Positions 1,530 to 61,192 of a DNA stretch of 64,000 nt are shown here, one piece after another. The stretch is from an uncultured Hormoscilla sp. (GTDB lineage: Bacteria > Cyanobacteriota > Cyanobacteriia > Cyanobacteriales > Desertifilaceae). Positions within the stretch are counted from its first letter, which is position 1; the number at the start of each line of letters is the position of its first letter. The notes under the pieces are model-generated. The model had not been told where the DNA came from, did no database searches, and saw only the letters and a program-made list of their open reading frames with translations. Location: positions 2,688,001-2,752,000 of the forward strand of contig OZ001293.3 of assembly GCA_963921275.4 (NCBI GenBank), given 5' to 3'. The translations under genes and the position numbers were made by a program.

Positions 1530-1963
1530 TCAGTCCGATTTTTCCGGTAAATGCGAAAATCCCGATCTAATGTTAACACTGTACTGCCTGCGATAGACTG
1601 TATCCCTCGGGAGCGCTATTCGCACTACTCGGGGGATACAGCTCACTCATTCGCACCAAACAAGCATCTGCAAAACCACATGGGCACAGATTTGTATTTT
1701 TGCATCAACTCTCTCACGGCGGTCACTTCATCGCTGAAACTAAAAAGAATCTCAATATAACCGTTACTCACTAAACCCATGACTGCATCCTCTCCCCCAT
1801 AAACATTTTTCAGGAGAAAACACGCTTCACTAATAACAGCTTCGCACGTTAACACCGGTTTGGCAATATTTCCCCATTGATTTACTGCCCAATCATGGTA
1901 GCGATCTCTTTTATCTAAAACCGCTACCAACACTCCTGTATCTAGGATAACTTTTCCGATCAT
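1530..1963 (-). pseudogene. PIN-domain toxin, frameshifted and interrupted by a 44-nt hairpin element
   Basis: ILDTGVLVA...CEAVISEA; frame breaks at VPM; C-terminal IAGSTVLTLDRDFRIYRK continues in another frame beyond the 1598-1641 insertion. Confidence 0.8.
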
Positions 1964-2223
1964 ATCGCCTTATATCCTTTCTTTAGCTCCTGTTTTTCCA
2001 TAGACAGATCGCCTACGCCGCTATCTAAACAACCGATAAACTCCTTTGCTACTTCCAGCATCGATCGGGACTTCTCCTTCATCTTCTACAGTTTCCCTAA
2101 TTTCCTGCTTTTGCGTCTTAAACTGCAAAAATTAAATTATTACCAGAACCGACTGCTGCTGTTGAGTGGTCAAGGTTTGCTTGTTCTAAAATCCTTTGTT
2201 CCTTGCTAACTGCTTGTATCATC
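1960..2223 (-). pseudogene. Degenerate antitoxin gene (DUF2281-like) upstream of the PIN gene
   Basis: Fragments QQQSVL..FLQFK and SMLEVAKEFIGCLDSGVGDLS in broken frames; ATGA overlap with the PIN start. Confidence 0.55.
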
Positions 2224-2293
2224 TTTTTCCTTCAGTTACACTCTTACTCCCACTCCAATAGCTTAGCATACTTTGGCGCAACACGATCGCCCT

Positions 2294-2400
2294 TTTATTC
2301 AAACTCTGATGCCCACACATCAACAGCAGAGAATTCCCACCCCGGCAGTAACTCGGGCACCTCTAAAACATCTGCATCTCCTAGCACTATCGTCAATGTT
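2294..2400 (-). pseudogene. C-terminal remnant of a Uma2-family endonuclease
   Basis: TIVLGDADVLEVPELLPGWEFSAVDVWASEFE* matches the typical Uma2 C-terminus. Confidence 0.55.
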
Positions 2401-2555
2401 ACATATCATTACAAGTAATACCGAGATGGCGATTTGAAAATTTCGCCCCATCGCACAAGGGAGTATCGAAACGCGATTTATGCTGTATAATGGTATGCAG
2501 TTGAAAGGTTAATGAGTTAAAGTCAGTCAAAGGCAAATGGCGCAGGTGTGAAGTA

Positions 2556-3011
2556 GTGATACCAGAATTCGATGAAAACGGCAATCTACCGCCACCGAAT
2601 AATTTTTGCGAATGGGAAGAGTTGAAAGAGAGATTTGGTACAACTTTTCCCAGACAGCGCCTGATAGATGGTTTGTCTCGGGCAATGGCGAAATTAAAAG
2701 CCGCAGGCTGTAGAATTATTTATATTAATGGCAGTTTTGTCACCAGTAAAGTAAAACCTAAAGACTACGATGCTTGTTGGGAAGACGATGGGGTTACTCT
2801 AGGATATTTGAAGTCCGTCGATCCTGTTTTATATAATTTCACCAGGGGTCGTACCGAGCAAAAAAATATCTACAGGGGATATTTTCTCAGCATCTTACCC
2901 TGCTGATTAAGCTGGTAATTATTACCTAGATTTTTTCCAATTCAATAGTAGAAAAGATATACGCAAAGGAATCATTGCTATCCATTTACAGAGGTGGGAA
3001 TATGATGATTA
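2556..3011 (+). pseudogene. Nucleotidyltransferase-like (DUF6932-type) protein, frameshifted
   Basis: MIPEFDENGNLPP...INGSFVTSKVKPKDYDACW; C-terminus YLDFFQ..RKGIIAI lies in another frame after ~2880. Confidence 0.7.
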
Positions 3012-3526
3012 AAAATGAGCAAGAATATCAGATCACATTAGATTGGTTGCGGCGGTTTGAACAGACAGTAGCTAAATTGGATAGCGATGAAGTCTTGAAA
3101 ACTGACGACCCAACGCGCTGGCAACTTTATCGAGACGCTTATCAGAGTCAAGTTGACGAGTTCAAATATGAAATTGCTGAATATGAAAGGCTGATCAATT
3201 GTGACCAAAAGCAGGTTTTGCAAATCAAAGTTGAGAATTTCAATAAACTGCCATGGGTTTTAATTAAAGCCATTCTGACTGCCAAGATTAGCCAGGAAGA
3301 ATTAGCGGAGACACTGGGAATTTCCTCACAGCGGGTGAAGGAGTATGAAGATACAGATTATCAATTTGCCAGTTTTGGAGAGATGATTGATGTCAGCATC
3401 GCTTTGGGTGTGGAAGTTGAAAAGGCTGTAATGCAGGTTGATTTTGAGGAAATCGAGGAAGTAGCACGTATCGCAAAAAAATGGCAAGAGAAGAAAAGAA
3501 AGAAGGCTATGGCCGCGCCGCGCTGA
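3002..3526 (+). CDS. XRE-family helix-turn-helix protein (probable partner of the upstream gene)
   Basis: MIKNEQEYQIT N-terminus and ISQEELAETLGISSQRVKEYEDTDY HTH. Confidence 0.8.
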   Translation: MMIKNEQEYQITLDWLRRFEQTVAKLDSDEVLKTDDPTRWQLYRDAYQSQVDEFKYEIAEYERLINCDQKQVLQIKVENFNKLPWVLIKAILTAKISQEELAETLGISSQRVKEYEDTDYQFASFGEMIDVSIALGVEVEKAVMQVDFEEIEEVARIAKKWQEKKRKKAMAAPR

Positions 3527-3720
3527 GCGATCGCAAACGAGATATTTAAGTTCTGCAGTTCATCTTAACAGGAGGCAGAGCCTCACCGAGACCGTTCCCT
3601 GCCAGAGACAGGGAACGAGATAATAGTTTTAAACTATATTGTTAGTCGGTTTTAACCGACTTTAGCTATTAGCCGGGGGTTTGAACCCCCGGCGGGCTAA
3701 CAGCGAAGTGAAGGAATTTA

Positions 3721-4716: not shown

Positions 4717-4847
4717 GTTAAATCCTCTCTGGTGAAATATTTCAGCTTTTAGATTAACGCCAATTGTGGTAATTCGTCTCTGGACGCGACTGGAAAAATA
4801 GTTACACTTAAAAAGGGATCGACTTGCGCGAAAGAGGCATTGTTGGT

Positions 4848-7962: not shown

Positions 7963-8034
7963 AATTTTACCCTCACGCTACTTACTATTATCATAACATT
8001 GAGAGAGCAAATTGTGTTCAAAGAGCACGAAAAA

Positions 8035-8712
8035 ATGTCAGATTGGTTATCGAGATTGCAAGCAAAACGGGCGATCGGGGTGATCCGCACTCCCCAACGA
8101 TCTTTGGGAAAACAGTTGGCCCTCTCGATCGCAGATGGGGGAATGCAACTGATTGAAATTACCTGGAATAGCGATCGCCCGGCTGAGTTAATTGCACAAT
8201 TGCGAACAGAATTACCTGCTTGTTTGATTGGTGCGGGCACTCTGTTAACCCCAGAACACCTGCATGGTGCTATTGCGGCGGGGGCGCAATTCCTGTTTAC
8301 TCCTCACACCAATCCTGCTATAATTGAAATAGCTCTTGCTGCTGGAGTACCGATTATTCCCGGGGCCCTTTCTCCTACGGAAATTGTTACTGCTTGGAAT
8401 GCAGGCGCTACCTGTGTGAAGGTTTTTCCAGTTAAATCTGTGGGCAGTGTTAGCTACATTAAAAGTTTACAAGGCCCATTGGGTCAGATTCCTTTGATCC
8501 CTACCGGAGGTGTTACCCTGGATAATGCTAGGGATTTTATTGCCGCCGGGGCGATCGGGGTCGGACTCGGAGGCAGTCTATTTCCTAAAAATCTCGTAGC
8601 AGCACGAGATTGGCAGGCGATCGCCCAAATAACTCGCACCTTCATGCAAAACTTAACCACTTCGATGTCCGACGGGCGCGCTAAAAGCACTACCCGTCGG
8701 ACATCGATCTAA
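8035..8712 (+). CDS. eda: KHG/KDPG aldolase
   Basis: IEIT, IGAGT, GAQFLFTP, PGALSPTEI, VKVFP, IPTGGV; 3' end carries an in-frame hairpin element. Confidence 0.92.
   Translation: MSDWLSRLQAKRAIGVIRTPQRSLGKQLALSIADGGMQLIEITWNSDRPAELIAQLRTELPACLIGAGTLLTPEHLHGAIAAGAQFLFTPHTNPAIIEIALAAGVPIIPGALSPTEIVTAWNAGATCVKVFPVKSVGSVSYIKSLQGPLGQIPLIPTGGVTLDNARDFIAAGAIGVGLGGSLFPKNLVAARDWQAIAQITRTFMQNLTTSMSDGRAKSTTRRTSI
8663..8706. repeat. 44-nt hairpin micro-element (type copy). Others: 1598-1641, 20764-20807, 20940-20983, 25628-25671, 27782-27825, 31763-31806, 31853-31896, 39863-39906, 40031-40074, 60995-61038
   Basis: 14-bp inverted arms around a 16-nt core (A/C/T)GCGCTA-NNN-GCACTA; 39863 is a variant with GCACAA and imperfect inner arms. 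Confidence 0.92.
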
Positions 8713-8717
8713 AATCT

Positions 8718-9476: not shown

Positions 9477-9574
9477 AGGGTGCGGCTACACAAACAAAGC
9501 CCGCCTGCGCGGGCTATAATAACCTCGTTCCCACTGGCGACCCCTGGGAACGGGATGCTAGAGGTTCTGCCTCA
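9469..9574. repeat. REP-like hairpin cluster downstream of gene (related copies 62451-62550 and 3571-3619)
   Basis: CACCCT(A/C)AAGGGTG, AGCCCGCCTGCGCGGGCT and CTCGTT..GAGG..GCCTC motifs recur at these loci. Confidence 0.7.
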
Positions 9575-18561: not shown

Positions 18562-18919
18562 AATTCATCCTGAATCTTTTTTCTGACTGACCTGGGAGTT
18601 GCGTTCCCAGAACACTCCTTGATTATAACCTGGCCTGGTTCGATCTGAGTGACGAAGATGCTAATTTTTTTTCCGCCCAGCAGCAGGAAGTTGGATCCAT
18701 TTCCATGCCGACATCGAGTCTCCCCAGCTTTTTGGCGACGGTTGTCCCGTCGATGTCCGACGGGTAGTGCGAGTAGACACGCGAGCGGTCTCTTGGGTAG
18801 TGCGAGTAGCGCGGCCTTCGCGAGACACCTCACCGGGAGGCATCGAGCGCCCGTCGGACATCGAAACCCAGTCAGGGGTCGAAAAAGGGTAAGGTGGGCA
18901 GTACACACCCTACAGGTTG

Positions 18920-20665: not shown

Positions 20666-21584
20666 GTTTGTTGTTGCGCTTTAGCGTTTATTGGTGAATG
20701 GCTGGACATCTACCATCTTACCACTAAGATAAAGGTCATTTAATATCAAGTCGCCACCACCTTCTGTGTCCCCCGGGAGCGCTAAAAGCACTACCCGGGA
20801 GAGACAGACCTCACCCTAAAGGGCAAGACTTACCTTCGCCTGGCGGGCTAGATGACAAAATGGAGATGTCCCTGGCATTTAATATAAAGTAGGGTGGACA
20901 TTGCCTAGGCTGTTGATTTTGGTCATTTTTCGGCTCTGTCGGTGTCCCCTGGGAGCGCTAAAAGCACTACCCAGGGGACACCGATCCCTCACTCCGGGAG
21001 CGTGGGATGGCGCGATCGCCTACAATTCATATAGAGCAATCGATCCACGGTCTCATAACCTTACACAAAAACTGCATGAAGTTTTTTCTGGGGCCATCGA
21101 AGTTCAAGTGTGAACAGCCTACGTGTCACCCGATCCCGGGGCTTCGCCCGACCTTCGAGCGCTAATCAAGTAACTATCGATCCAGAGAACATCTCGACAA
21201 GAGATTGATTTTTTAGCATCTACAAATTTTCTACCTCAGATCCCTAGCAGCTATCAAACAAAAAATTTAAAAGCGTTCCACCGGAGAATAATTAAGGATT
21301 GCAGAATAGGCATTCGATATCCCCCAGAGGGGACGCTCGATGTCTCCGGAGAGCTCGCGCGCTATTCGCACTGCGCATCGCACATCGCGGAGACATCGTA
21401 TTCGCACTACCCCAGAGATATCGAGGCCAGAACTAGAGATAGAATTAAAATTTTCAAGTACCTATTCCGTAATTACCGGAACAACATAGATTAGAAGCTG
21501 AGAAGAAAGCGCGGTTAACCTATGTGATGACATTGCTGCGACGCGGTGTCTCCCGGGGACAGCTCCCAGGAGACACCGCGAAGA

Positions 21585-25516: not shown

Positions 25517-25703
25517 CCTTCCCCTTCTTCATCGGAATTTTACGCTACCCTGAAGAAGGGGATAGTTAAGAAAAGCTTAAAATTAGGATCTCAATTATCT
25601 TTCCCCGTTCGCGCAGCGACTGCCCTGCGATGCCTGGAGGGTAGTGCGAATAGCGCACCCTCCAGGCATCGAGTATCGCCCAATACCGGAGCAAAGTTGT
25701 AGA

Positions 25704-27209: not shown

Positions 27210-27864
27210 TATCTAGCTGCATCGGACCGAGGTACTTGCTCAAGTAAGGGGAAAAAACCTCATAAATTAGAGTGAGGGGGCGTCCATGATGCCAAAACAG
27301 GTAGTGACGCCCCCAAAACGGTCCTCGCTGTCCAAAAGCACAGTCTAAGGCCGGTTCCTGACCATAGTAAATTCCTTGAACATCTCGATATAACTCGGTC
27401 CGCAGGCGAGCCAGACTTGCCCAAATAGGCAAAGATCGATTCTGCAAATACTCATCTACATGGCTGGCTTCCCACCAAGAAGTAGCATAGGCCAACCGCT
27501 GTCCAGAAGCGGTTCGCAGCCACACTTGACGCCGAAGTCGTGGCCCGGGAACTCTGTGAATTTGCACGGGAGCACCATCTGCATCCATACCAATATGAGA
27601 CATATCGATCACGTCCACCTCAGTTGGTTCGCCCGTGAGCAGTTGCAGGTGGCGTGTCGGGGAACCATCTCCCAGCAGCAGCATTTGCCATGCCGGTGCT
27701 AGCTGGCTATGAGGCAATCCTTGCTGAACGATTTCCTCTCCCCCCTGCCAAAGGGGTGTCAGAGCATGCCATGGGGTGGTTCGATGTCCCTCGGGAGCGC
27801 TAAAAGCACTACCCGAGGGACATCGAAGCGTGACTTGATTGCTGGGTCTAATAATGAAGTACAA
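27199..27864 (-). CDS. ubiC: Chorismate lyase (DUF98/Ycf21 type)
   Basis: LLLGDGSPTRHL, RRQVWLR, LAYATSWW, IYEVFSP; in-frame hairpin element near the N-terminus. Confidence 0.88.
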   Translation of the reverse strand: MYFIIRPSNQVTLRCPSGSAFSAPEGHRTTPWHALTPLWQGGEEIVQQGLPHSQLAPAWQMLLLGDGSPTRHLQLLTGEPTEVDVIDMSHIGMDADGAPVQIHRVPGPRLRRQVWLRTASGQRLAYATSWWEASHVDEYLQNRSLPIWASLARLRTELYRDVQGIYYGQEPALDCAFGQRGPFWGRHYLFWHHGRPLTLIYEVFSPYLSKYLGPMQLDING

Positions 27865-28230: not shown

Positions 28231-29101
28231 GGATGGGGTCGAGCCGGGAATCGCTTCCCGACCCTCCCTTTCGGAACCGGACTTGCGATTTTCACCGCAT
28301 CCGGCTACTGGGTACTAGGCCCTTTTCATAGGTAGACTTAATAGGAATTACTTCCGTTAGCCCTTGCCGCCTGTCTTTTCTTCCCTTTCCTGGTTTAGCG
28401 AGTGGTTGTTCTGATAACCGTTAGTATCACCATTTTCAAGTCAGTTTTACCAGTTATCCATACCTTATCCTCCACTTGCGTTTCGGATTAGTTCCGTGGC
28501 TTTTTAGGATTACTCATTCCAGCAGCTTCCTAGTATCACCGACCCACGTCAGCGCTGGCTACCCAGCATCATCTACATTACTGTAGATGTTATCCCAGGA
28601 ATTACCCCGGGCATTCGCTTCTTGGGCCATCCCTCCCCCCGTGGCTTGCGCTTAACATCTAACTTGTCCTGATGGACAGCACACGAGAGGTTACTTCGTT
28701 CCCTAACAACATTTCGCGATACCTTTAGGTCCACACTATACCCCGGGAGCTATTTGAGTACTATATTAGCCAGAGTCTAAAACTAATACTAGCTACCATT
28801 TCCTTTTTAGGCCAGCGCATATAGCCTTATTTCGCTGGTTCCTTATAACGAGGCTTGCACATGTTTGCCTGCTCTAACCTTGGATATCTTTCCTAGCGGC
28901 GTCACCGGCTTAGGCTGCCAGTTATCCTACATTTGAGTCCTCGCTTAGCACCACGATGATGTCGCTTCGTAGCACCGAGGACCGGTGTCACCCCCGTACC
29001 TGGGGGGAGGGGAATTTAACCCCCATGCGGTCAGAGTTCCCGGCTAATGAAACCGGGCTAGCGTTCCGTGTTTGACCACGTTAGGCTAGAACGAATCGCA
29101 C
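28231..29101 (-). mobile_element. ORF-less group II intron (copy 1)
   Basis: 5' GTGCGATTCGTT; DV GTAGCCGGATGCGGTGAAAATCGCAAGTCCGGTTC; DVI; EBS1 AGACT complementary to the 5' flank. Confidence 0.9.
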
Positions 29102-31293: not shown

Positions 31294-32160
31294 ATGGTAA
31301 ACATTGGACTGAATCCAGGTGCTATGCTGGGCATTGTCCTGTTTGGGGCAGGGGCTGGGTTATATTTTATGCGATCGGTCCGTCCCGAGTTAGCCCGCGA
31401 TCACGATATATTCTTTATGGCAGTGGCTATACTCAGTGGCGGCATTCTGTTTTTTCAAGGATGGCGGCTGGATCCGATCCTGACTTTCGGTCAGTTCCTG
31501 CTGACGGGATCGGCGATTTTTTTTGCGGTCGAAAGCATTCGTCTGAGAGGGTTAGCTACTTCACAAGCTAAGCGGAATACGCCAATTGTGGATTACGATC
31601 GACCTGTAAGCCGTGTTTATGAGGCGGAACTAGATGACTTTGAACTAGAAGACGATCCGCAGATGACCCGTAGGATGATCGGAACTAGGGAAGGCAGGAA
31701 TACCGGTGTGGACGAATACGATGACGATCTGCCTAGATCGAGCACAACTAGACGTTCGACTTCGAGGTCTCTCGGGAGCGCTACTCGCACTACCCGAGAG
31801 ACCTCGACTCGTACTAGACCAGGTGGTGGTTCAACGGCCAGACGGAGTACTTCGATGTCCGACGGGCGCGCTACTCGCACTACCGGTCGGACATCGACGC
31901 GGCGTCCGCGTCCGACCACAGACCGGAGAATTAGGGATGCTGATGATTGGGAAACACCGAAAGATACTTACGGACGAAGCAGTGAAAATGACTCGCCTAG
32001 GCGCGATCGCCCGACAGCTTCTGCCAAGGGATCGAGAAGAAGTCGTCCCCCCAGATCTTATGATGCTCAAGAGCAAACAAACTATGTTGATTTCCAACCT
32101 GTAGAGAAAAGATCGTCGGACGACGAGGATGATGATAATTCAAGTGGTTTTGACTACTAA
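31294..32160 (+). CDS. ycf66: Ycf66 family protein with two in-frame hairpin insertions
   Basis: RPELARDHDIFF, FQGWRLDPILTFGQ, ESIRLRG. Confidence 0.93.
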   Translation: MVNIGLNPGAMLGIVLFGAGAGLYFMRSVRPELARDHDIFFMAVAILSGGILFFQGWRLDPILTFGQFLLTGSAIFFAVESIRLRGLATSQAKRNTPIVDYDRPVSRVYEAELDDFELEDDPQMTRRMIGTREGRNTGVDEYDDDLPRSSTTRRSTSRSLGSATRTTRETSTRTRPGGGSTARRSTSMSDGRATRTTGRTSTRRPRPTTDRRIRDADDWETPKDTYGRSSENDSPRRDRPTASAKGSRRSRPPRSYDAQEQTNYVDFQPVEKRSSDDEDDDNSSGFDY

Positions 32161-36124: not shown

Positions 36125-37035
36125 GGTCGGGGTCGAGCTAGGAATCGCTCCCCAACCCTCCAAGAGCGAAACCGTGCTTGCGACTTTCACCGCACACGGC
36201 TACTGGTTACCAGGTCCTTGTCATGGATAGGCTTTATAGGGGTTACCCACCGTAGGCCCTTACTGTCTACTTGTTGGCTCCTTCTATGTGCAGGTCAGCG
36301 AGCGGTTGTCAAGGAACCTGTGGTCTCTCGCCTAGTTTATATCGCCGTCCGACGGCAGTCACCCTGTTTCACCTACACCTTCACTCATACCTCCATCAGT
36401 CCCCGAGGGGTCCAAATCGGGCTCATAATATATGTGGAGTTACTAATCTGAACAGCATCCTGGTATATCCGTCCCACGTCAGCGTCCTTGTGGACATCAC
36501 CGGGATTGCTCCGGGCGTTATCCCAGGCATTACCCTGGGCATTTGCTTTTTGGGACATCCCTCCTCCCGTGGCTTGCGCTTAATATCTAACTTGTCTAGC
36601 CGGTCGAGACCAGACAGCACACGAGAGGTTACTTCGTTCCTTGATGTCATTTCACGATATCTTTAGGTCCGTACTATTCCCCGACAGTCTTTCGGATACA
36701 TGACTAGCCACTGCCCAAAGCTAGCCCTGACTGCTTCCCCTTTTGGGGCCAGCGTATATAGCCTTATTCCGCTGGTTTTGGTTAACGAGGTTTTTATACG
36801 TTCGCTTGTTCTAACCTTGGATATCTTTCCTAGCGGAGTCACCGATTTAGGCTACCAGCTATCCTACATTTGAGTCCTCGCTCAGCACCACGGTGATATC
36901 GCTCCGCAGCACCTCCGACCGGTGTCAACCCTGCATCTGGGCGGGAGGAATTTAACCCCCATGAACATCAAAGTTCCCGGTTGATGTAACCGGTCGCTCA
37001 TGACCTGTTGCGGGTCATTTACGAACGAATCGCAC
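36125..37035 (-). mobile_element. ORF-less group II intron (copy 2)
   Basis: 5' GTGCGATTCGTT; DV GTAGCCGTGTGCGGTGAAAGTCGCAAGCACGGTTT; ends CGACCCCGACC; EBS1 GGGCAG pairs with flank CTGCTC. Confidence 0.9.
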
Positions 37036-39125: not shown

Positions 39126-40284
39126 GTTCGCCAGACTTAGATTGCTGAAAATACCTACTATTCTACCCTTTCGGGCCGACCGCAAGCACCCGGAGCGACT
39201 ATTTGTCCGTCAGGTTGTCCCTTGCGGAAGCTAGTCTAGAGCAGTTCGTCTTGTATTTTTGCTCTCAGACTCAATCACCTGCTATAGGGTATGCTGCTGA
39301 CAACCTCGGGAGCATCTCACTTTGGCAATAAGTACAAATGCTCAGATAAAGTCCCTTTTGAGATCAGCACAACGTTGCCTCAAGACTTGATTAACATTTT
39401 CGGATTTCCTAAGAGCACCCTCAAGCTTGATTCTCTGAGCGATGCGCTTAAGCGTCTCAGAGACGGCTCCTGAACCAATACAGATTTCTGCCAGGAAGGT
39501 ACTGGCAATAATCAGGAAGATGAGAGAAGTCCGGTGTGACTTGAGGTGCTGGTTTAATATGGTCTGGGAGTCTCAAGTGAGATGGCCGCGAAATAAAAAA
39601 ATAAAATATTTGGTCATTTATATCAGAATTAAGGCTATATTTTATATAATACTCAGAGAATACCCATTACCCTAAAAAACAGGGGATGCCAGGTGGTTTC
39701 CATAAATCAGCAAAATAGATGTTGACGCTGAACAGCTTCTCTATGGTATTCTAGAAAATGCAACTTGGAGCATAGTCAATCGCGTTAGTTGGAATCGGTA
39801 GTAACCCAACATCCCCCCTAGGCTAAAACCCAGGTTTGGACTTTTCTGGTGCAACTTGCAGGCTGTGTCTCCCCTTTTGTGCGGGCAGCGCTCCCGGGAG
39901 ACACAGCCTGTGTTGGCTGGCCCAGAAAGTCGGTAAAATGGAGATCCTCGGACGGCTATAGGTAAGGGGTTGATCACCTCAAAATCCAGGCTGTCAGAGG
40001 GATATAGTCGTAGTCAGATCCCAAAGGCTTCGATATCTTCTGGGAGCGCTACCCGCACTACCCAGAAGATATCGAGGAGAAATTTTTCTCAATCAGTCTT
40101 TGTGATGTTAGCTAAAATTGCACAAAGGATACCGGTGTAAGGTGTTGCTAACAGAATTGGGGCCATGGCTAACACCACGAAGGAGCGATAAACCCAGGAT
40201 GTGGGCAAAGTTGTGCTCCAGGGTTGGGCTTGACATCAAGTTGACTTACAATCTAAAGAGAAACGAGGAATTAAGGTATAAGTG

Positions 40285-44011: not shown

Positions 44012-46433
44012 GTGCGATTCGTTTAGGGTAAAATGACTTGACACGTGTCAAAAAAGGGGACCGCTAGCAGGGTTTCAATAGCCCTGACAACTTACAGATG
44101 ATGGTGGTGAAAGCCCACCCCTCCAGGTGCTCTCGTGACAGCATCCTCCCGACGGTAGCGATGGCATCAATCCGTAAAGCGGGAAGGAAAGGCGCTCTAA
44201 CTGGTAGCCTAAACCGGTCATCGTCGAGCAAGTAGTCATGATGAGCGCAAGCAAAGGTTCATAAGTGTCGTCAACATCAACCAGTGTAATAAGGCTGAGA
44301 CACTGGCCCAAAAGGGAAAGGATAATGGTCATTAGCGGTTGTAATCCGACTAATAAGCACTGACAACAAACCCGGCATATAGAATCCATCTAAAACTACG
44401 ATTAATCATCTGTAGGAACGAAGTAACCCAGCTAGGCACTCTCCATCACCGGTCGATAGATGGAGTAGTCACCAAAGACGCAACATCTGCTCTCATTTGG
44501 CAGGTCATAGCTGGGAAAGATTGAGTGGAGAAGCAAACGCCTATCTGTAATGGATGGGATAAGCTGACGCCCTCACGGTTTTGTCAATTGTGAAGTTGTG
44601 AGTAGTAGTTAATATGTCACGGAACTTAGCCGAAAAGCAAGAGTATGAATGGAAGGAGGTGCCCTGGCAGGAGCTGGAGCGCCGATCGCGCTAGCGTGGC
44701 GCCAGCCATGTCTTCAAGCTACAAAAGCGAATTTACAGAGCGGCACAGGAAGGCAACAAGCGGAAAGTTCGCAAGCTCCAAGGGTTACTAAATAGGTCAT
44801 GGTCCACGAAGATGATAGCGGTGAGACAGGTAACACAACAAAACCAAGGAAAGAATGCGGCTGGTGTGGATGGTGTGAAAGCACTGACTATGGAGCAGCG
44901 ACTGGAACTGGTAAGTCAGCTCAGAGTATCCAGGAAGGCAAAGGCGAAACCTACACTGCGTGTATGGATACCTAAGCCAGGAAGGGACGAAAAGCGGCCA
45001 CTAGGAAGACCGACGATGCACGACCGCGCACTTCAGGGATTGGTCGTCAAACAGTCGCTTGAGCCCGAATGGGAAGCGTACATGGAAGCCAATTCCTACG
45101 GATTCAGACCAGGAAGGGGATGCCACGATGCGATCGAAACGATATTCACCAGCACCAACAAGAAACCAAAATGGGTGTTAGATGCGGATATTGCGAAATG
45201 TTTCGACAAAATTGACCACTCAGCGCTCCTAGAGAAATTGAATACAACATCACCAATCCGTAGACAGATACGGGCATGGCTAAAAGCCGGGGTGATGGAC
45301 CAGGGAATATGGCAGGACACAGAAGCCGGAACTCCTCAAGGCGGAGTAATATCACCATTGCTAGCCAATATAGCCCTACATGGGTTGGAAAAGGTAGTGA
45401 TGAGTCTTGCCCGCACAAAGAGAGAGGAAAAGAAACTAACGATAGTCAGGTACGCCGATGATTTTGTGGTAATGCACGATGACCGGTCAATGATTGAGCG
45501 AGCACAAGGAGTGATTGAGGAGTGGTTGAAGGGAATAGGACTAGAGCTAAAAGCCGAGAAAACCAGGATATCCCACACACTGGAAGGAGAAAACCCCGGA
45601 TTTGACTTCCTAGGGTTCAATATCCGACAATACAAAGTAGGGAAACACAGAAGCGGCAAACTCAGCAACGGAACCCCCCTAGGATTCAAGACCCTAATCA
45701 AGCCTAGCGATAAATCCATTAGGAATCATAAAGAGCAACTATCACAGATAGTTCGCCGCCATAAATCGGCACCACAGACAGCCTTGATAGTCAAACTAAA
45801 CCCAATGATAAGGGGATGGAGCAACTACTTCAAGACGGTGGTAAGTAAGGAAACTTACAGCGACATGGATAGCTACCTATGGGAGCTGCTGTGGCAATGG
45901 GCAAAGAGAAGGCATCCCAATAAATCGGGCGAATGGATTGCCAAAAATTATTGGGCCATGACCGGTAAGGACCGGTGGAGGTTCATCGGTAAATCCAAGA
46001 AAGGAGAAATAAAGCTAATCCGGCACTCTGAAACTGAAATAATCAGACACACAAAGGTAAAGGGGACAGCTAGCCCGCTTGACGGTAACCTAGTCTACTG
46101 GAGCCAGAGATTACGAAAGAGCCCGGACGTAAGCATGAGAGTGATTAACCTGCTCAAGAGGCAGGATGGCAAGTGCCAGCATTGCGGACTAACGTTTAAG
46201 GACGGCGACAAATGGAAGTGGACCACATCCTGCCAACCTCACTGGGAGGTAAGAACTGGTACTCCAACCTACAGTTGCTGCACGACTACTGCCATGATTA
46301 TAAATCTGCCAGGGATGGCAGCAAAGGCCGTATCCATGACAAGGATGACGAAACTGAGGAGCCGGATGAGGTGAAAGTCTCACGTCCGGTTTTGAAGACG
46401 AGTCGGTACGGTGACGTACTGGCTTAGTTTAAT
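44012..46433 (+). mobile_element. RT-encoding group II intron (chloroplast-like class) in the 5' region of the downstream gene
   Basis: 5' GTGCGATTCGTT; DV GAGCCGGATGAGGTGAAAGTCTCACGTCCGG; ends TTAGTTTAAT; EBS2 AACATC pairs with flank GATGTT. Confidence 0.93.
44614..46427 (+). pseudogene. ltrA: Group II intron RT/maturase/HNH protein with an in-frame TAG at 44692 and a frameshift at ~46210
   Basis: VFKLQKRIY, AGVDG, SYGFRPGR, GTPQGG.ISPLLANI, YADD, CQHC...VDH...HDYCH. Confidence 0.88.
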
Positions 46434-46441
46434 AGTCTCCG

Positions 46442-47030: not shown

Positions 47031-48169
47031 ATGGATAGTCAAACGACTAGCGTTGTGTTTCCGGTCACAGTATTGAAGGAAATCTACTTAGTTCAGTTGC
47101 CCGATCGCTTGACTGTGCTGGAGGCGGTGGCCTTCAAGGACAGTTTTAAGCAATTGTGCCAAGAGAAACCGGCACCAGTGCGAATAGTTCTGGATTTCGG
47201 TAAGACTACTTTTATCGACAGCAGTGGCATCGGAGCACTGGTCAGTAGTCTGAAAATCGCGAGGTCTCACAAAACAGAAGTGGTATTCTGGAGTCTCCAT
47301 CCTCAGGTAAAGATGGTTTTAGAGCTCACAGAACTGAAAGCGGTGTTTACAGTTGATGCCGGAACTGAGGCGATTATACCGACAAAAGTCCAACATGTGA
47401 AGTCAAAGCAAGCACCTTCGGGACCTCTCGGCGCTCGATGTCTCCCGGTGAGGTGTCTCTTGGGAGCGCTAAAAGCACTACCCAAGAGACCACAGCGAGA
47501 CGGTCTAATCGCACTACCCGGGAGACATCGTATTCGCACTACCCGAGAGGTCCCGGTTACTCATCCTTCGGTGCGATCGCTCCCGAAACGCTTAATTGAC
47601 ATTGTCGGGGCTTTGGTGGGTCTTTTGATTACAGCGGTTTTGTACATCCCCATTGTGATTGCGATCGAACTAGATAGCCCCGGACCGATATTTTTTGGTC
47701 AAATCCGCTGTGGTGGATGGGCAGGCGTTTTAATATCTGGAAATTTCGCTCGATGGTGCCTGACGCGGAAGCGCTGAAAGGAAAGATCAAAAATCAAGCT
47801 AAAGGTGCCTTTTTTAAGAATGATAATGACCCACGAGTGACGCAGGTGGGTCGCTTTTTGCGCCGCACGAGTCTGGATGAGTTCCCCCAGTTTTGGAATG
47901 TCCTGAAAGGGGAGATGTCTCTGGTGGGGACTCGACCTCCGACCCCAGATGAAATCGATCGCTATGAAATACCTAAGTGGCGATGCTTGAATGTTAAACC
48001 TGGTATGACTGGGGAGTGGCAGGTGAATGGCCGCTCTCAAATCCGCGATTTTGAAGATGTGATCTGCATGGATCTACGTTATCAAGAAAATTGGAGCCTG
48101 ATGTATGATATCAAGCTGATTGTTAAGACGATCGCCATTTTGTTTAGGAAGAATTCGGGCGCAGTTTGA
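47031..48169 (+). pseudogene. STAS (anti-sigma antagonist) plus sugar transferase fusion; 1-nt frameshift at ~47715 and a 45-codon in-frame nested insertion
   Basis: [57 protein letters not shown]. Confidence 0.85.
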
Positions 48170-53626: not shown

Positions 53627-54461
<835 letters not shown>

Positions 54462-54803: not shown

Positions 54804-56411
54804 ATGGAATTTAACACTCAATCTCAAGCAACAACCCCCATACTGGATGCTCTGTCCACCTGTGCCATGAGGTCTCATGCTGCTTTCTACTCCCCCGGAC
54901 ACAAGCGGGGAGTAGGAATTGACCCACATCTGTCTTCTTTGCTCTCGACAGCTGTCTTTCGAGCTGATTTGCCCGAATTGCCCAGTTTGGATAACCTGTT
55001 CGCCCCGACTGGGGTAATTCAGCAGGCCCAGCAGTTAGCAGCGGCGACCTTTGGAGCCGATCGCACTTGGTTTCTGGTGAACGGTTCCACCAGTGGGGTA
55101 ATAGCGGCAATTTTGGCCACATGTACCGACGGGGACCAGATTATTTTGCCTCGGAACGTGCATCAAAGCGCGATCGCGGGTCTGATCCTCTCGGGTGCGG
55201 TCCCCATCTTTATTAACCCAGAATACGACGCCGATGCAGACCTTGTCTACAGTATCACCCCACGGGCTGTGATGACAGCATTAAGGCAGCATCCGGAGGC
55301 CAAAGCGGTGATGATGGTTTACCCGACTTACCAGGGCGTCTGCGGCGACCTGCAGGAGATAGCCCTTATCACCCACCAACTTAACATTCCCCTGCTGGTA
55401 GACGAAGCCCACGGTCCCCACTTTGGCTTTCATCAGGACTTGCCCCCATCAGCCCTGTCCGCCGGTGCCGACTTAACGGTACAATCCACCCACAAGGTAC
55501 TGGGGGCCATGACTCAGGCCTCCATGCTGCACCTAGTAGGTAACCGCATCTCACCAGAACGGGTGAGTAAAGCCTTGCAACTGGTGCAATCTACCAGTCC
55601 CAGTTATTTACTCCTAGCTTCTCTGGATGTAGCCCGTCAACAAATGGCACTGCACGGAGAACAGCTGATGGCACGCACATTGCAACTGGCCTCTTTGGCC
55701 AGAGACCGCATCAGCCAGATTCCCGGATTGTCCGTCTTGGAACCGGCTTTTACCAAGGGCTTCCTGGCCCTAGACCCCACGCGGCTGACAGTTAATGTGA
55801 CTGGGTTGGGGCTGACTGGCTATGAAGCTGATGAAATTCTCGATCGAGAGTATGCGGTAGTGGCTGAGTTACCATCAACCCAATATCTGACCTTTATCAT
55901 CAGTTTAGGGAACACAGCGGCAGATATTGAGCAACTGGTGCAAGCTTTGACCAGCCTCAGCCAGCAGAAACTCCCCCAGAGTTCGGACGCATCCGCTCCG
56001 CCTGTATCCCCCGGTGCTGCGTCTCCTGGGAGCGCTAATCGTACAAAAGGGGAGACGCCGCGCGCTACTCGCACAAAAGGGGGGATACAGCAGCTAAGTT
56101 GGCAAAATGTCTCCACCAGGTGGAAGGAAGAGTTAATGCATGTTCATCCTTCAACTTTCATCGTTCATCCTGCACTCTCTCCCCGGGAGGCATTCTTTGC
56201 CCCAACGGAAACCCTACCGTGCGAACAGACTGACGCACGAATTGGTGCCGAAATTCTCTGTCCTTACCCACCGGGAATTCCAGCGTTAATGCCTGGTGAA
56301 GTCATTAATCTCGCTACCCTGGACTACCTGAAACAAGTCCTGGCTTTGGGTGGCAAAATTACGGGTTGTAGCGATCCTACCCTCAAAACCTTAAAGGTTG
56401 TGCGACATTAA
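54804..56411 (+). CDS. Orn/Lys/Arg decarboxylase family PLP enzyme, with a nested in-frame insertion
   Basis: SPGHK, FLVNGST, VDEAHG, QSTHK, STSPSY, PYPPGIP. Confidence 0.93.
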   Translation: MEFNTQSQATTPILDALSTCAMRSHAAFYSPGHKRGVGIDPHLSSLLSTAVFRADLPELPSLDNLFAPTGVIQQAQQLAAATFGADRTWFLVNGSTSGVIAAILATCTDGDQIILPRNVHQSAIAGLILSGAVPIFINPEYDADADLVYSITPRAVMTALRQHPEAKAVMMVYPTYQGVCGDLQEIALITHQLNIPLLVDEAHGPHFGFHQDLPPSALSAGADLTVQSTHKVLGAMTQASMLHLVGNRISPERVSKALQLVQSTSPSYLLLASLDVARQQMALHGEQLMARTLQLASLARDRISQIPGLSVLEPAFTKGFLALDPTRLTVNVTGLGLTGYEADEILDREYAVVAELPSTQYLTFIISLGNTAADIEQLVQALTSLSQQKLPQSSDASAPPVSPGAASPGSANRTKGETPRATRTKGGIQQLSWQNVSTRWKEELMHVHPSTFIVHPALSPREAFFAPTETLPCEQTDARIGAEILCPYPPGIPALMPGEVINLATLDYLKQVLALGGKITGCSDPTLKTLKVVRH

Positions 56412-58829: not shown

Positions 58830-58867
58830 TCAGCGCTTTAGCCGGTTTGTAGTCAGCGCTTTGGCGC

Positions 58868-59674
58868 TTAGCGAGTTCTTAATCCTTGCTCCTTGAGGAC
58901 GCCATATGCCCAAACAGCATCAGCTTTTGATAATTTGGGTACGGGTTCACAACTGTAATCTATCACTAAATCATAACTACCTTGATCGTATACAGTATGT
59001 AACAATTCTTGGAAAGGAATCATTGGTTAAGGATCTGATTCTGTTGTTAACGGTAAGGGAATGACAGTAATTTTATCTTGAACATTAAAAGCATATAAAT
59101 CAGCTTTTGGGCGAGTGTTACTGCGACTAACTAAAATCCGATAATGGGTCTGAATTTTCTGACTATCCATTGGCATAATTCTGCCTTTGCGCAGCAAATC
59201 AACCTCAATCAAATGGGTTAAGCTGTCCAAAATTTTCTGACGCTTAGTTTCGTAGCTACTACGACCTGGTCCGGCTTTTTTGTTCTTAGGACTCAGAATT
59301 TCAATCACTGTTATCACTGCACCGGTTGCCACATCTCGCACTTCTAAATACCATTCCTTAACTGTTTTCGGTAGAGGCAGGGTAACTTTGACCGGTAAGG
59401 AAGGCGGTGCCGCAACAGCTACATTTGATTCCAGGGAGTGACTAGATGTGGGAGAAGTTTGTACCAAGACATTATCAGGAATACCCACAAGCAGAGAATC
59501 ACCATTTTGGGTGTCATTCGCTGCATAAACTCTTTCTTCAATTTCCATCCGATATTTAGGGCGAATTTGAGGGTTCATGGCATTAGCTATTGCCACGATT
59601 AACCGCTTATGTATTTGAGGCCAAATTTGGGAATTTTCTAAATAGGGATTCATCCCAGGAAATGGAGAAGGCAT
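58868..59674 (-). pseudogene. DUF4058 family protein with a premature TAA at 59027-59029
   Basis: MPSPFPGMNPYLE, IEILSPKNK; frame continues PMIPFQELLHTVYDQGSYDLVIDY to TAA at 58868. Confidence 0.85.
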
Positions 59675-59777
59675 GGGTTGTGTCTCCTACAAGACAGTTT
59701 ATTAGCAGTGAGCAGTACCAGTGCGACTCAGTACCAGTGCGACTCAGTACCAGTACCATGACCTGACCAGTGACAAC

Positions 59778-60012
59778 TATCAACTGACAACTATCAACTG
59801 ACAACTATCAACTGACAACTATCAACTGACAACTAAGCAGGTAGGCACAAATAAACCAGCCTATGTAAAGAAATATAAAATCGCTGAATTCTCTTCTGGG
59901 AGAGGCTTTGAACTAAGTTAACAAAAGTTTACATAGTTAATTTTAATTATGCACACCTACTTATCAACTGACAACTATCAACTGACAACTATCAACTGAC
60001 AACTATCAACTA
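59778..60012. repeat. Heptamer tandem repeats (CAACTGA/CAACTAT), split by the 59834 MITE
   Basis: Alternating 7-mers on both sides of the MITE; STRR-type repeats. Confidence 0.85.
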
Positions 60013-60033
60013 TCATGATAATTATATCCTATT

Positions 60034-60798
60034 TCAAGGCATCACTTTGACTCGACCGTGACAAACTACTAGGCCAGGACTGAGGGTTAATTCTTGGATT
60101 TCTACTTCTTTCCCTAAGTCAAGAGGGAAACTCTCTCGGTTTGGGACTCTTATGTCTGGTGGCATCTGGAGATCTAGGGGATACAGCTGCAATTCATGAT
60201 TGCTAGCCAGTTGCACTCCGCTGCGAATCACCATTGGGGCGACATTGCCATCGGCGTCTAGTAAGCTGCCTGTGACGGTCAAGCCACCAGCTTCTAGGGC
60301 AATCTTGTGCCAGTGCGGGGCGCGGTTTCCGATGACTTCAGAGTTAATTTTGCTGTCCGATGTCAGTAGCTGACAGAGTAAGTCGGTTAAGGCCCGAGAG
60401 AGCAAACTATCTTCTGAGGACAGTCCAGCATTCAGGTCTGCTTCCTCTAGCTGTACCTGACCGACTACGGGCACCGGTGCTCCCAAGCGCAGGGGTTTTC
60501 CCCGCAATATCTGAAGCAGGTTGATGCTAATGCCTTCTGCTACTAGCTGGAGATGACTCAGATGCAATCCTTGATAGACCGCTTTGTCCGCCGATAGGAA
60601 GATTCGGGGGATAAGACCAGCAATCAGCAGGCGATCGCCCGCTTCTATATTTACTTGTAGCTGTGCCACTGACTCTACTTGGGTACGCAACCACCGCTTT
60701 ACTGCCGGCGATAGCACTCTCTTCAGCTTCTGGCTTTGGCGCGAATGCACCTTTTTTCTCTGGTCAAAAGATCCCAAGTTGTCATCACTTCTTGACAT
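60034..60798 (-). CDS. DUF2993 (LmeA-like) protein
   Basis: VLSPAVKRWLRTQVE, AVYQGLHL, INLLQILRGKPLRL. Confidence 0.8.
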   Translation of the reverse strand: MSRSDDNLGSFDQRKKVHSRQSQKLKRVLSPAVKRWLRTQVESVAQLQVNIEAGDRLLIAGLIPRIFLSADKAVYQGLHLSHLQLVAEGISINLLQILRGKPLRLGAPVPVVGQVQLEEADLNAGLSSEDSLLSRALTDLLCQLLTSDSKINSEVIGNRAPHWHKIALEAGGLTVTGSLLDADGNVAPMVIRSGVQLASNHELQLYPLDLQMPPDIRVPNRESFPLDLGKEVEIQELTLSPGLVVCHGRVKVMP

Positions 60799-61192
60799 TA
60801 CTATCCTAGATTATGGTTTTTTTGTCAGGATCTCATGACGAAAATATTCTTAAAAGCCCCAAAAACCAAGAAAATAGTTAAAATTTGTCAAAATAAATTT
60901 GATCTCCTCTTGATCTCCAAGAAAAATTGTTGCAATATGTAAAGAGAGCGATCCCGACGAGCCCAGGCCATTGAATGGCAAGGGAAGCAAAGCCCTGTAT
61001 CCCCCGGGTAGTGCGAGTAGCGCTCCCGGGGGATACAGCAGGAAGTCAAAACGACCGGCAAGAATGCTTGCGTCTGCGCTCCGACCGCCTAGGGCTCGCT
61101 CACACAGCAGAATATAAGCTTGGTGGAAATTGTAGAACTTGGAGTGAGGGAGCGATAGGATCGAGCCGGACAAAATACTGGAGATCAGATCA

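Follow-up and report, generated by a model that had tools for sequence, protein, structure and literature searches.

A family of 44–46-nt hairpin-forming mobile DNA elements, present in hundreds of copies in a cyanobacterial genus

Results

Hairpin elements in the window

The window, a 64-kb part of the genome of an uncultured Hormoscilla sp. (G000), contains short hairpin elements both between and inside genes (Table 1), and was compared with the genomes of four congeners (G001–G004). A 44-nt hairpin was confirmed at all eleven sites listed in a sequence-only reading of this DNA. The canonical core, which that reading assigned to every copy, was recovered in ten of them; the copy at 39863 carries GCAC followed by AAAAG, not TACCC. 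The four composite copies, in which hairpins are nested, had been missed.

Table 1. Elements of the family in the window and their state at orthologous sites. A slash marks the insertion point in an empty site.
Feature	Position	Strand	Location	Basis	State in other genomes
Stand-alone 44-nt hairpin, CTG-ended arms	1598..1641	+	Intergenic, between two PIN-domain ORFs	Pfam	Missing in G003, G004, net gain 44 nt; three paralogous empty sites within G000
Stand-alone hairpin	8663..8706	+	3' tail of KDPG/KHG aldolase ORF 7999-8712	Pfam	Missing in G001-G004; 45-nt gain at CCAC/GATC (TT + first 43 nt, then target G)
Composite, outer hairpin with further nested modules in core	18751..18863	-		Sequence	Simple element in G002, G003, G004
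Stand-alone hairpin, 12/14 paired	20764..20807	+	Intergenic	Sequence	Common to G002, G003, G004; family B mini-hairpin inside core in G004
Stand-alone hairpin, 14/14 paired	20940..20983	+	Intergenic	Sequence	Within a stretch missing from G002, G003, G004; locus rearranged
Composite of nested hairpin modules	21315..21423	+		Sequence	
Stand-alone hairpin, 14/14 paired	25628..25671	-	Between purL-like and purF-like genes	Pfam	Missing in G001, G002; family-B insertions in core in G003, G004
Stand-alone hairpin	27782..27825	+	5' part of chorismate-lyase-like ORF 27199-27864 (minus strand)		Missing in G001; family-B inserts in G002, G004
In-frame copy	31763..31806	+	Inside ycf66-like gene 31294-32160	Pfam Ycf66_N	Missing in G001
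Second in-frame copy	31853..31896	+	Inside ycf66-like gene 31294-32160		Missing in G001; 45-nt gain at GTAC/GACG
Stand-alone hairpin, 'GCAC-AAAAG' variant type	39863..39906	-	Intergenic	Sequence	Missing in G004; net gain 46 nt
Stand-alone hairpin, 14/14 paired	40031..40074	+	Upstream of AbrB-like gene		AAAAG-type variant in G002, G003
Composite, three nested hairpins	47419..47555	+	Inside ORF 47031-47777 (STAS domain + start of sugar transferase)		Only simple element in G001
Composite, two nested hairpins, AAAAG variant	56002..56090	+	Inside Orn/Lys/Arg decarboxylase gene 54804-56411, between its two domains	Pfam	Missing in G001, G002; rearranged form with family-B hairpin in G003, G004
Stand-alone hairpin, 14/14 paired	60995..61038	-	Intergenic	Sequence	Missing in G001, net gain 45 nt; different core insert in G002, G003, G004

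Each unit consists of complementary, variable arms of 14–15 bp around a conserved and asymmetric 16-nt core, nGCGCTA-NNN-GCACTA, which itself forms a 5-bp mini-stem on one strand. As had been proposed, these 5 bp, which include a G.T wobble, lengthen the stem on the strand that reads TAGTGC-NNN-TAGCGC (folding energy of the DNA, -20.5 to -21.5 kcal/mol), and the opposite strand has a C.A mismatch (-17.8 to -19.2 kcal/mol). Both strands fold very stably, with Z-scores of -6.6 to -10 for the hairpins, and the RNA hairpin formed by an insert is very stable as well.

The window contains 12 exact matches to the core pattern GCGCTA-NNN-GCACTA, where chance predicts 0.15; with up to one mismatch the number rises to 16, the exact ones included, which none of 100 shuffles reached. 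The genome-wide scan suggested earlier returned 277 exact cores in G000, every one on contig C1; the arms pair at 10 or more of the 14 positions in 183 of them and perfectly in 88. When one core mismatch is permitted, G000 contains 235 hairpins of the 14+16+14 form. Right half-cores outnumber full cores (403 versus 221), which indicates that many units are nested; elements sit within one another's cores and also hitch-hike in other repeats. The most frequent arm pair is shared by 12 copies; most have unrelated flanks, and two are nested in other family modules.

All four congeners carry the core (36–138 cores each, so that counts within the genus run from 36 to 277), whereas 36 other relatives have 0–2 cores each and, across the phylum, four of 400 other genomes have one match each, which is the control level. 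Among the genomes searched, the family was found only in those of the genus Hormoscilla (about 430 other cyanobacterial genomes: 0–2 cores).

Insertion without target-site duplication

The proposal that the family is mobile and non-autonomous was borne out by empty sites, both in congeners and in paralogous repeats. Empty orthologous sites were seen for the elements at 1598, 8663, 25628, 27782, 31763, 31853, 39863, 56002 and 60995, together with seven paralogous filled/empty pairs, and the element matched neither a known MITE nor any other described family or paper. Landing places are spacers, the cores of resident copies and protein-coding genes. Where the junction is clean, the measured gain is 44, 45 or 46 nt. 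The sequence-only reading had deduced a TCGA target, duplication of CG and a net gain of 42 nt from the flanks. The flanking pattern T/CG...CG/A does hold for six of the seven CG-ended copies (the exception is 25628); nevertheless, the target model is contradicted by the gains and by empty-site sequences such as CCAC/GATC, GTAC/GACG, GCCCA/GAAA and TTCGT/CCAG, which show no consistent duplication. The junctions are also non-uniform, with 0–2 extra bases on the left side, and this, together with the three gain sizes, would be unusual for a site-specific transposase.

Two classes of insertion-sequence derivative were rejected on these grounds. A MITE of a DDE insertion sequence has invariant terminal inverted repeats and duplicates a target stretch of constant length, and is ruled out by the variable gains and the lack of a consistent duplication in the filled/empty pairs with a readable junction. 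Elements derived from IS200/IS605 insert on the 3' side of one particular tetra- or pentanucleotide and carry two different subterminal hairpins; here, the bases before the junction vary (CCAC, GTAC, GGGT, GGAG, CCCA, TCGT) and there is one symmetric hairpin only.

Copies inside genes

A quarter or more of the copies lie in frame inside genes, a feature that had been overlooked. Because the gene calls are crude ORFs, the genic share is given as a range, 56–95 of the 235 hairpins: 95 fall within ORFs of 120 aa or longer, 78 are bordered on either side by 50 or more open codons, and 56 by 60 or more on either side, with a unique frame. Pfam domains were recognized in 18 of 21 host ORFs tested, and the hosts include topoisomerase I (TopA), PEP carboxylase (PEPC), GlyS, UvrA, Ycf66, ARC6 and an SNF2 helicase. 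In alignments of TopA, GlyS, PEPC, ARC6 and Ycf66, in-frame copies are missing from orthologues. TopA has an exact 15-aa insert in G000 alone among 13 genomes, right behind the AQEAHEAIR motif, which is conserved in solved topoisomerase I chains. In GlyS, an exact 15-aa insert is found at residue 515 in G000 alone among six genomes and another at residue 658 in three of the six; PEPC has two insertion sites.

A single unit keeps the frame when it adds 45 nt, or 15 codons. Use of the five open frames is strongly skewed (30/8/8/7/3, chi-square p = 2.7e-8, n = 56), the preferred one encoding S-M-S-P-G-S-A-T-R-T-T-Q-E-T-S, and the frame that contains a stop codon is used by none of the 95 genic copies. 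At most 12 copies break a frame that is otherwise open after their removal, compared with the 78 that keep it. These frame statistics suggest that the genic inserts are translated as a hydrophilic loop rich in Ser, Thr and Pro.

Arm variation and covariation

Complementarity is maintained while the arms vary, as the sequence-only reading had held: the mean is 12.96 Watson–Crick pairs of 14, versus 9.10 when the partners are shuffled (no more than 9.45 in any of 1000 shuffles), although the 235 copies have 122 distinct left arms and perfectly paired arms come in 63 different types. A spanning tree of the arms contains 95 double changes from one Watson–Crick pair to another, 41 of them transversions, against 12.9 expected. 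Six double changes were seen in 21 comparisons of orthologues; those that occurred in place are confined to three loci, one of which resembles wholesale replacement of the arms. At 18751, three pair positions differ on both sides between G000 and G002/G003/G004, and at 47419 G000 and G001 differ in both members of one outer-arm pair. Pair 4 of the 31763 element is G.C in G000 and G004, T.A in G002 and T x C in G003, and pair 5 of the 40031 element is A.T in G000 and G004 and C.G in G002, with a left-arm change only in G003. At GlyS residue 658, G003 differs at five pair positions together and G004 combines the left arm of one allele with the right arm of another. A block change from TACCC to AAAAG is found repeatedly, at two orthologous loci and in different lineages. 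Selection on one particular strand, which had been envisaged, was not supported: arm mismatches on the core-forward strand comprise 48 of G.T type and 67 of A.C type, which points to neither strand as the one that matters.

Candidate enzymes in the genome

No mobilizing enzyme was linked to the family, in line with the sequence-only reading. The only clear Y1/RAYT-like gene in G000 (C1:241784-242200) is bordered on both sides by a different palindromic repeat, of the AAAGCCCGCCTGCGCGGGCTAC type, and no core of the 44-mer was found in the surrounding 3-kb stretch (240500-243500) at up to three mismatches. G000 and all four congeners have a Y1_Tnp gene, and comparable Y1 genes occur in 15 of 16 other genomes searched, from genera with 0–2 core matches. 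The genus is rich in group II introns that carry reverse-transcriptase ORFs, with one at 44012-46434 of the window and dozens of copies in G002 and G004. At the gathering score, Rfam 15 matched none of the elements in the window; its seven matches there fall on parts of group II introns, a tRNA and a weak CRISPR repeat.

Discussion

Relation to described repeats

The closest known kinds of repeat are the Rickettsia palindromic elements (RPEs), intragenic REPs and the small dispersed repeats (SDRs) of Nostoc. Owing to the in-frame genic copies, the Rickettsia analogue is much closer than had been thought. According to two reviews, RPEs are short palindromic and lineage-restricted repeats found between genes and in frame in often essential genes, RPE-1 being a longer palindromic insertion (Ogata et al., 2000, via PMC3184786 and PMC3733652). 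The present family likewise comprises dispersed palindromes in one lineage (277 cores, 235 hairpins), between genes and in frame in functional genes whose orthologues lack them, with no transposase known. RPE-1 measures about 100–150 bp, whereas the element described here has 44–46 nt (15 codons), it resides in a free-living cyanobacterium whose genome spans 7 Mb, its arms are variable and covarying while the core they surround is fixed, and its copies routinely nest in one another's cores. Since the hosts belong to different phyla and RPEs were compared by description, the likeness is one of kind, not of descent.

REPs tagged with GTAG/CGTC are described as having a 5–13-bp stem with an unpaired tag at one end, those with GTAG often adjoining a RAYT gene; their mobility was inferred from uneven distribution, and intragenic ones, notably in replication and repair genes, occur as single units or dimers coding for about 10–30 residues (Di Nocera et al., 2013; PMC3733652). 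Our elements resemble them as small stem-loops in coding regions, with UvrA, TopA and an SNF2 helicase among the hosts. In contrast to REPs as so described, the conserved part here is the loop and the variable part the stem, and the RAYT-like gene is associated with another repeat. Membership of a REP/REPIN–RAYT system was rejected because the RAYT gene is not flanked by the element and there is no conserved stem with a GTAG foot tag; a GTAG-like tetramer lies inside the core only. A REPIN, as reported, is a doublet of two conserved REPs beside its RAYT, with a proposed single-stranded intermediate (Bertels & Rainey, 2011; PMC3116915). It shares with our element hairpin formation, non-autonomy and evolution within the genome; the latter, however, consists of one hairpin whose arms vary, and it lacks a RAYT neighbour.

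Nostoc SDRs are reportedly 21–27 nt long, mobile by filled/empty comparison, hairpin-forming and nested in other repeats, with no known enzyme; HIP1 is said to be the insertion site of SDR5. Our elements are similarly very small, mobile, hairpin-forming and nesting cyanobacterial repeats, but they probably differ in sequence and, at about twice the size, are set apart from SDRs as these are described. HIP1 (CGATCG) lies within 12 nt of an element end in 4 of 235 copies, versus 8.8 at random places, and this lack of enrichment, with the unit size, excludes membership of the SDRs as described. One account reports that no SDR-like repeats were found outside Nostocaceae (PMC5861425).

Proposed mode of spread

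We consider it likely that these elements are a genus-restricted family of selfish, non-autonomous palindromic mini-elements. New copies enter as 44–46 nt of DNA without target-site duplication, and Russian-doll composites result from landing in resident cores. The mobile form would be a folded single DNA strand, handled by a hairpin-recognizing enzyme (HUH/RAYT-like) or by the replication and repair machinery. Arm complementarity may be kept partly because only well-paired copies spread and partly because one arm is corrected on the template of the other, or converted by other copies. Within genes, the retained copies would be the ones that lengthen the frame by whole codons and contain no stop codon.

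It is unlikely that the elements are REPIN-like units moved by the resident RAYT-like Y1 (HUH) transposase, with single-stranded hairpins cut and joined without target duplication. A Y1_Tnp gene does accompany the family in G000 and its four congeners, the insertions are hairpin-dependent and lack target duplications, and the core holds the reverse complement of the GTAG tag given as typical of REPs (PMC3733652); but the RAYT-like gene has the AAAGCCCGCCTGCGCGGGCTAC-type repeat at its borders and no core in the 3-kb stretch examined, Y1 genes also occur in genera where the element was not found, and the arms, the part that a RAYT would be expected to recognize, are highly variable. Spread without a dedicated enzyme, in which replication forks switch template and scattered copies convert one another using the core as homology, would account for the mixed and multiply changed arms at GlyS residue 658, the three pairs altered at 18751, the recurrent TACCC-to-AAAAG change and the variable junction lengths. 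Conversion could not, however, seed naive sites such as TopA and GlyS residue 515, which had no resident copy, and a conserved core of 16 nt is short for homologous recombination, so that we regard this alternative as quite improbable. An RNA intermediate copied into DNA by a group II intron reverse transcriptase, of which the genus has many, is a distant prospect: the enzymes are plentiful and template switching could yield chimeric or nested forms and ragged junctions, but the mismatch types have no strand bias, copies outside genes show no link to the direction of transcription, and among the loci examined no element stands beside a reverse-transcriptase gene in a retron-like arrangement.

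Selfish DNA also has to be weighed against host-beneficial structural signals (terminators, mRNA stabilizers, or protein or nucleoid binding sites) maintained by selection. A core conserved in 277 copies, a strongly maintained structure with compensated changes at orthologous loci, and stable folding of both strands would suit such signals. They are nevertheless very unlikely, as presence varies between sister species even within essential genes, copies between co-directional genes show no orientation bias (31 same, 40 opposite), convergent spacers are not enriched, there is no U-tract, copies nest mutually and hitch-hike in other repeats, and numbers range so widely within one genus. For the genic copies, it is scarcely credible that the insert stays untranslated because ribosomes jump over it or because it is cut out of the mRNA, as with T4 gene 60 or the mitochondrial 'byp' elements of yeast. 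The TopA insert does follow a conserved motif directly, where a 15-residue loop might hurt, and the insert forms a very stable RNA hairpin. Translational-bypass inserts are tolerated whatever their length or frame, often with stops; skipping would thus make frame and length irrelevant, and the excess of frame-keeping copies (78 versus at most 12), the 30 of 56 in one of five open frames and the complete avoidance of the stop-codon frame (0/95) count against it and led us to reject membership of the byp class.

Anatomy and window copies

The sequence-only reading described the 44-nt hairpin unit (the 44-mer) correctly in its anatomy: a 14-nt arm, a 16-nt core and a second 14-nt arm are present at all eleven positions where stand-alone copies had been placed. 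The core is canonical in 10 of these 11; the copy at 39863 is a core variant in which AAAAG replaces TACCC after GCAC. At no more than one mismatch, the window contains 16 instances of the core GCGCTA-NNN-GCACTA, 12 of which are exact, with 0.15 expected, and 16 was reached in none of 100 shuffles. The T and A flanks described for six of the seven CG-ended copies were also recovered. Four composites of nested units (see table) were absent from that reading.

DNA folding of both strands bore out the proposed asymmetry of the stem. The strand with TAGTGC-NNN-TAGCGC gains an extra 5-bp mini-stem with one G.T wobble (-20.5 to -21.5 kcal/mol), whereas the opposite strand has a C.A mismatch at the wobble position (-17.8 to -19.2 kcal/mol). 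RNA parameters rank the two strands identically, and the folding Z-scores lie between -6.6 and -10. Flank position -1/+1 is complementary in 78 of 156 cases against 54.1 by chance (maximum 72 in 2000 shuffles). A longer palindrome extending beyond the arms was rejected, as flank positions -2 to -6 are not complementary above chance.

Features of the window, with empty sites in four congeners (G001-G004) and gains at clean junctions
Feature	Window position	Empty orthologous site	Gain (nt)	Context
44-mer	1598	G003, G004	44	
44-mer	8663	G001-G004 (all four congeners)	45	3' tail of KDPG aldolase gene
44-mer	25628	G001, G002		
44-mer	27782	G001		5' part of chorismate-lyase-like ORF
44-mer	31763	G001		
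44-mer	31853	G001	45	
44-mer	39863	G004	46	
44-mer	60995	G001	45	
Composite	18751-18863			
Composite	21315-21423			
Composite	47419-47555			
Composite	56002-56090	G001, G002		between two domains of Orn/Lys/Arg decarboxylase
Group II intron	28231-29101			
Group II intron	36138-36204			
Group II intron	44012-46434			
Group II intron	53627-54460			
Reverse-transcriptase/maturase ORF	44812-46374			in one group II intron
Weak Rfam match, CRISPR-DR28	9493-9516			directly downstream of metallophosphatase gene

Abundance and distribution

The genome holding the window (G000; 7.03 Mb, 47% G+C) has 277 exact cores, every one on its main contig C1 and split 147 to 130 between the strands. At least 10 of the 14 arm positions are complementary in the canonical register in 183 of them (88 perfectly), and the remaining 94 belong to nested or rearranged forms. 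With one core mismatch tolerated, 519 cores were found; 235 of these form hairpins in which 11 or more of the 14 arm positions pair, and this set was used for the analyses of arms and genes. The loop triplet of the core is mainly NTC (CTC 82, TTC 52, ATC 46 and GTC 28, with AAA at 24). Right half-cores, TA-NN-CGCACTAC, number 403, as against 221 with the preceding GCGC, so many additional units are present only as shells around inner copies.

Each of the four congeners carries the family, with 36, 94, 87 and 138 cores, while 36 genomes outside the genus but within its family and order hold 0-2 cores each. A longer pattern gave 181 matches in G000; of 400 other genomes drawn from across the phylum, four had a single match each, on a par with the reversed-pattern control. 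A scan of the genome collection using a pattern with only 14 specified bases was discarded, since it returned chance matches in unrelated phyla. Rfam holds no family corresponding to the 44-mer, and five typical core strings had no match in the literature text searched.

Empty sites and insertion junctions

The 44-mers are a real and mobile family with recent activity. Syntenic blocks of the congeners share 83-99% identity with the window, which allows orthologous sites to be compared directly, and many window copies face empty sites in one or more of these genomes (table). Several insertions are present in G000 alone among the genomes compared, and they are polymorphic between sister species. 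Paralogous empty sites exist for seven G000 copies that lie inside other multi-copy sequences. The commonest arm pair occurs 12 times in mostly unrelated flanks, which indicates that it did not spread by segmental duplication; two of these copies are nested in other family modules. The earlier proposal of a mobile family is thus upheld by both orthologous and paralogous empty sites.

The proposed junction was not found. At clean junctions the insertions add 44, 45 or 46 nt, and we saw neither the TCGA target, nor the CG duplication, nor the net 42-nt gain that had been suggested. Beyond the window loci, the gain is 44 nt in the paralogous pairs el19 and el172 and 45 nt in el128, el112, el72, the nested el92, the topoisomerase I gene (TopA) and both GlyS sites. 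For many CG-ended copies, the insert consists of TT plus hairpin nucleotides 1-43, followed by a G that pre-existed in the target; such sites include CCAC|GATC, GTAC|GACG, GGGT|GCAG, GGAG|GAGG and GCCCA|GAAA. At other junctions the full 44 nt and one additional base were inserted. The TopA insert is flanked by a 4-nt direct repeat, CCAG. The octamer HIP1, whose 4754 occurrences mark G000 as a cyanobacterium, in line with the protein atlas, was considered as an insertion target and rejected, as it is not enriched beside 44-mers.

Covariation of the arms

The arms are highly variable, with 122 distinct left arms and 63 distinct perfectly paired arm types among the 235 hairpins, yet 3046 of 3290 arm pairs are Watson-Crick. 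Mean pairing per copy is 12.96, compared with 9.10 when right arms are reassigned to other copies (1000 shuffles gave at most 9.45). On a minimum spanning tree joining 167 distinct arm pairs, 95 two-sided changes keep the pairing (54 transitions and 41 transversions) where 12.9 would be expected if the sides changed independently; one-sided changes on the same tree number 173. Complementarity is therefore maintained despite the variable arms, as the sequence-only reading held, by covariation far above the shuffled and independent expectations. Arm mismatches show no clear strand asymmetry (48 versus 67 by type, inflated by one hitch-hiking subfamily).

In 21 scored comparisons of orthologous copies, after 14 had been excluded because of arm indels, we counted 38 one-sided, six double compensated and two other double changes, the double changes being confined to 31763, 40031 and GlyS residue 658. 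At 31763, G003 looks like an intermediate of the double change. At GlyS residue 658, G003 differs at five pairs simultaneously and G004 is a left/right chimera. In the composite at 18751, three pairs of the outer arms, each on both sides, distinguish G000 from its congeners; the G000 arms are identical to the arms at 8663, a copy specific to G000, and the left arm also equals the one at 31853, a copy that other species share. Together with the double changes, this comparison points to in-place replacement or templated correction, and also to selection among spreading copies. Template switching at quasipalindromes is reportedly an established source of concerted arm changes, from work by Ripley and by Lovett.

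Copies inside genes

Invasion of coding sequence, which the sequence-only reading had missed, is the main addition made here. Ninety-five of the 235 hairpins lie wholly within ORFs of 120 codons or more; the frame stays open for 50 codons or more on each side of 78, and for 60 or more on each side, in a single frame only, of 56 (the strict set). A Pfam scan of host ORFs identified recognisable genes in 18 of 21, among them PEP carboxylase, SNF2 helicase, adenylate cyclase, UvrA, Omp85, CbiG-CobJ, an AmiC-type amidase and NFACT. Topoisomerase I and GlyS carry two copies each, ARC6/Ftn2 two or more, and ycf66 in the window two.

The 44-mer is open in five of its six frames. The strict set uses these 30, 8, 8, 7 and 3 times (n = 56; chi-square p = 2.7e-8), and the stop-containing frame is used by none of the 95 in-ORF copies. 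In the favoured frame, a T and the 44 nt encode S-M-S-P-G-S-A-T-R-T-T-Q-E-T-S. From these frames we infer translation of the in-gene inserts, with selection having acted as a filter on their length as well as on their frame. Arm pairing is 12.91 of 14 inside genes and 12.97 of 14 outside.

Protein alignments place 15 additional residues in TopA of G000 immediately after AQEAHEAIR, a motif conserved among solved topoisomerase I chains; they are missing in all 12 relatives compared. Topoisomerase I can thus accommodate 15 extra residues even in the region of a conserved motif. G000 and G003 alone share another TopA insert, close to the C-terminus. An AlphaFold2 model of the protein, built from a 10-sequence alignment, has a mean pLDDT of 52.7, too low for assigning the insert to a surface loop. 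GlyS has one 15-residue insert in G000 only and another shared by G000, G003 and G004 that is missing from G001, G002 and a further relative, G005. PEP carboxylase carries in G000 a 30-residue composite that G002 shares at the DNA level; a second site in this gene is filled in four species, three of which show further invasion by another mini-hairpin.

Twelve copies break frames that are otherwise open without them, but most of these supposed gene-splitters are artefacts of neighbouring ORFs. The G000 copy at C1:1925177-1925220 has an in-frame TAG within an ORF of about 723 codons; this ORF is a gene broken recently or else a candidate for read-through. In this genus, 44-mers are a source of broken assemblies and of distorted gene models, ORF calls and alignments.

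Nesting and other repeats

From left to right, a composite consists of one arm, a short linker (GAGCT, TCGCT or TG), the inner unit, a second linker (TA-NN-CGCACTA or an entire core) and the other arm. An un-nested paralogous form of the nested pair el92 exists, and the gain there is 45 nt. A second mini-hairpin family, family B, has the form GTTCCCAGGC-N4-GCCTGGGAAC-GAG, and its 10-nt arm motif occurs 164 times on C1 (for example at C1:469276 and 1764491). It inserts into 44-mer cores of some species, as in the orthologues of 20764, 25628 and 27782 in G002-G004. Family B is often paired with an AGAGGC-N4-GCCTC hairpin, and also nests in stems adjoining the RAYT-associated repeat.

A block change from TACCC to A(A/G)AAG directly after the core GCAC is found at 242 sites genome-wide. 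In the window it affects 39863 and 56002-56090, shortening the stem, and its state varies among species at two orthologous loci (40031 and the ARC6 orthologues). The change might be a footprint of family B.

G000 has two other repeats that contain 44-mers, of about 225 nt (C1:1142940 and about 10 similar sites) and about 1 kb (C1:1845390 and about seven). We considered them as parent transposons and rejected this: they are passive carriers into which a 44-mer inserted and was then amplified along, and the ORF listing gives no ORF of at least 150 aa over the 44-mer in either context. Such passive amplification explains the multi-copy imperfect hairpins.

Relation to known systems and possible mechanism

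Intragenic short palindromic repeats occur in Rickettsia and a few other bacteria; to our knowledge, how they move is still unsolved. The 44-mers share the defining features of RPE-like elements (Rickettsia palindromic elements), a likeness of kind and not necessarily of descent. They lack the defining features of REPIN/RAYT systems, of DDE-type MITEs, of IS200/IS605 derivatives and of Nostoc SDR5 as described. The closest kinds are the Rickettsia palindromic elements, intragenic REPs, in-frame repeat fusions, Nostoc SDRs and REPINs. The catalogue of intragenic REPs by Di Nocera et al. gives a bias toward replication and repair genes (PMC3733652); in-frame repeat fusions are covered in a review by Delihas (PMC3184786) and REPINs in PMC3116915, and the Nostoc SDR work (Elhai, 2008) is cited in PMC5861425.

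A role as terminator or regulator is unsupported: 44-mers are not enriched in convergent spacers, they show no orientation bias between co-directional genes (31 in the same and 40 in the opposite orientation), and sister species differ in which of them are present. We found no enzyme linked to them. On both flanks of the sole clear Y1/RAYT-like gene lie arrays of another repeat, and genera without the 44-mer have comparable genes too. Because there is no target duplication, the elements depend on the hairpin and they insert into other hairpins, handling of a folded single strand would fit better than a DDE transposase. The mechanism is possibly unusual. We consider it improbable that the 44-mer represents a new mechanistic class, a self-templating hairpin either without a dedicated transposase or with an enzyme family so far unlinked to mobility. 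If it did, the mini-hairpin of the core would act as the primer for fold-back synthesis of an arm on the template of its partner in every generation, and the arms could drift freely yet remain complementary; ragged, duplication-less junctions and a preference of new copies for the cores of old ones would follow. Read in frame, the family would then be a steady supply of new 15-residue surface loops in proteins essential to a free-living phototroph. The 44-mers offer a clean test system: they are very small, recently active and polymorphic between sisters, their anatomy is sharply defined by a fixed loop and freely varying arms, and their host is of a culturable type.

Other observations in the genome

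The RAYT-like Y1 transposase gene of G000 (C1:241784-242200; with its flanks, C1:241500-242700) has arrays of a AAAGCCCGCCTGCGCGGGCTAC-type palindromic repeat on both flanks, a classical REPtron-like arrangement that is separate from the 44-mers. The CRISPR-DR28 match in the window scores 36.6 bits, where the gathering score is 35. Contig C3 of G000 (31,420 nt) has 17.6% G+C against 47% for the chromosome and is probably foreign to the cyanobacterium, as a contaminant, phage or plasmid. Several group II introns of the window are ORF-less, beside tRNA-Leu and elsewhere, with related copies numbering in the dozens in G002 and G004.
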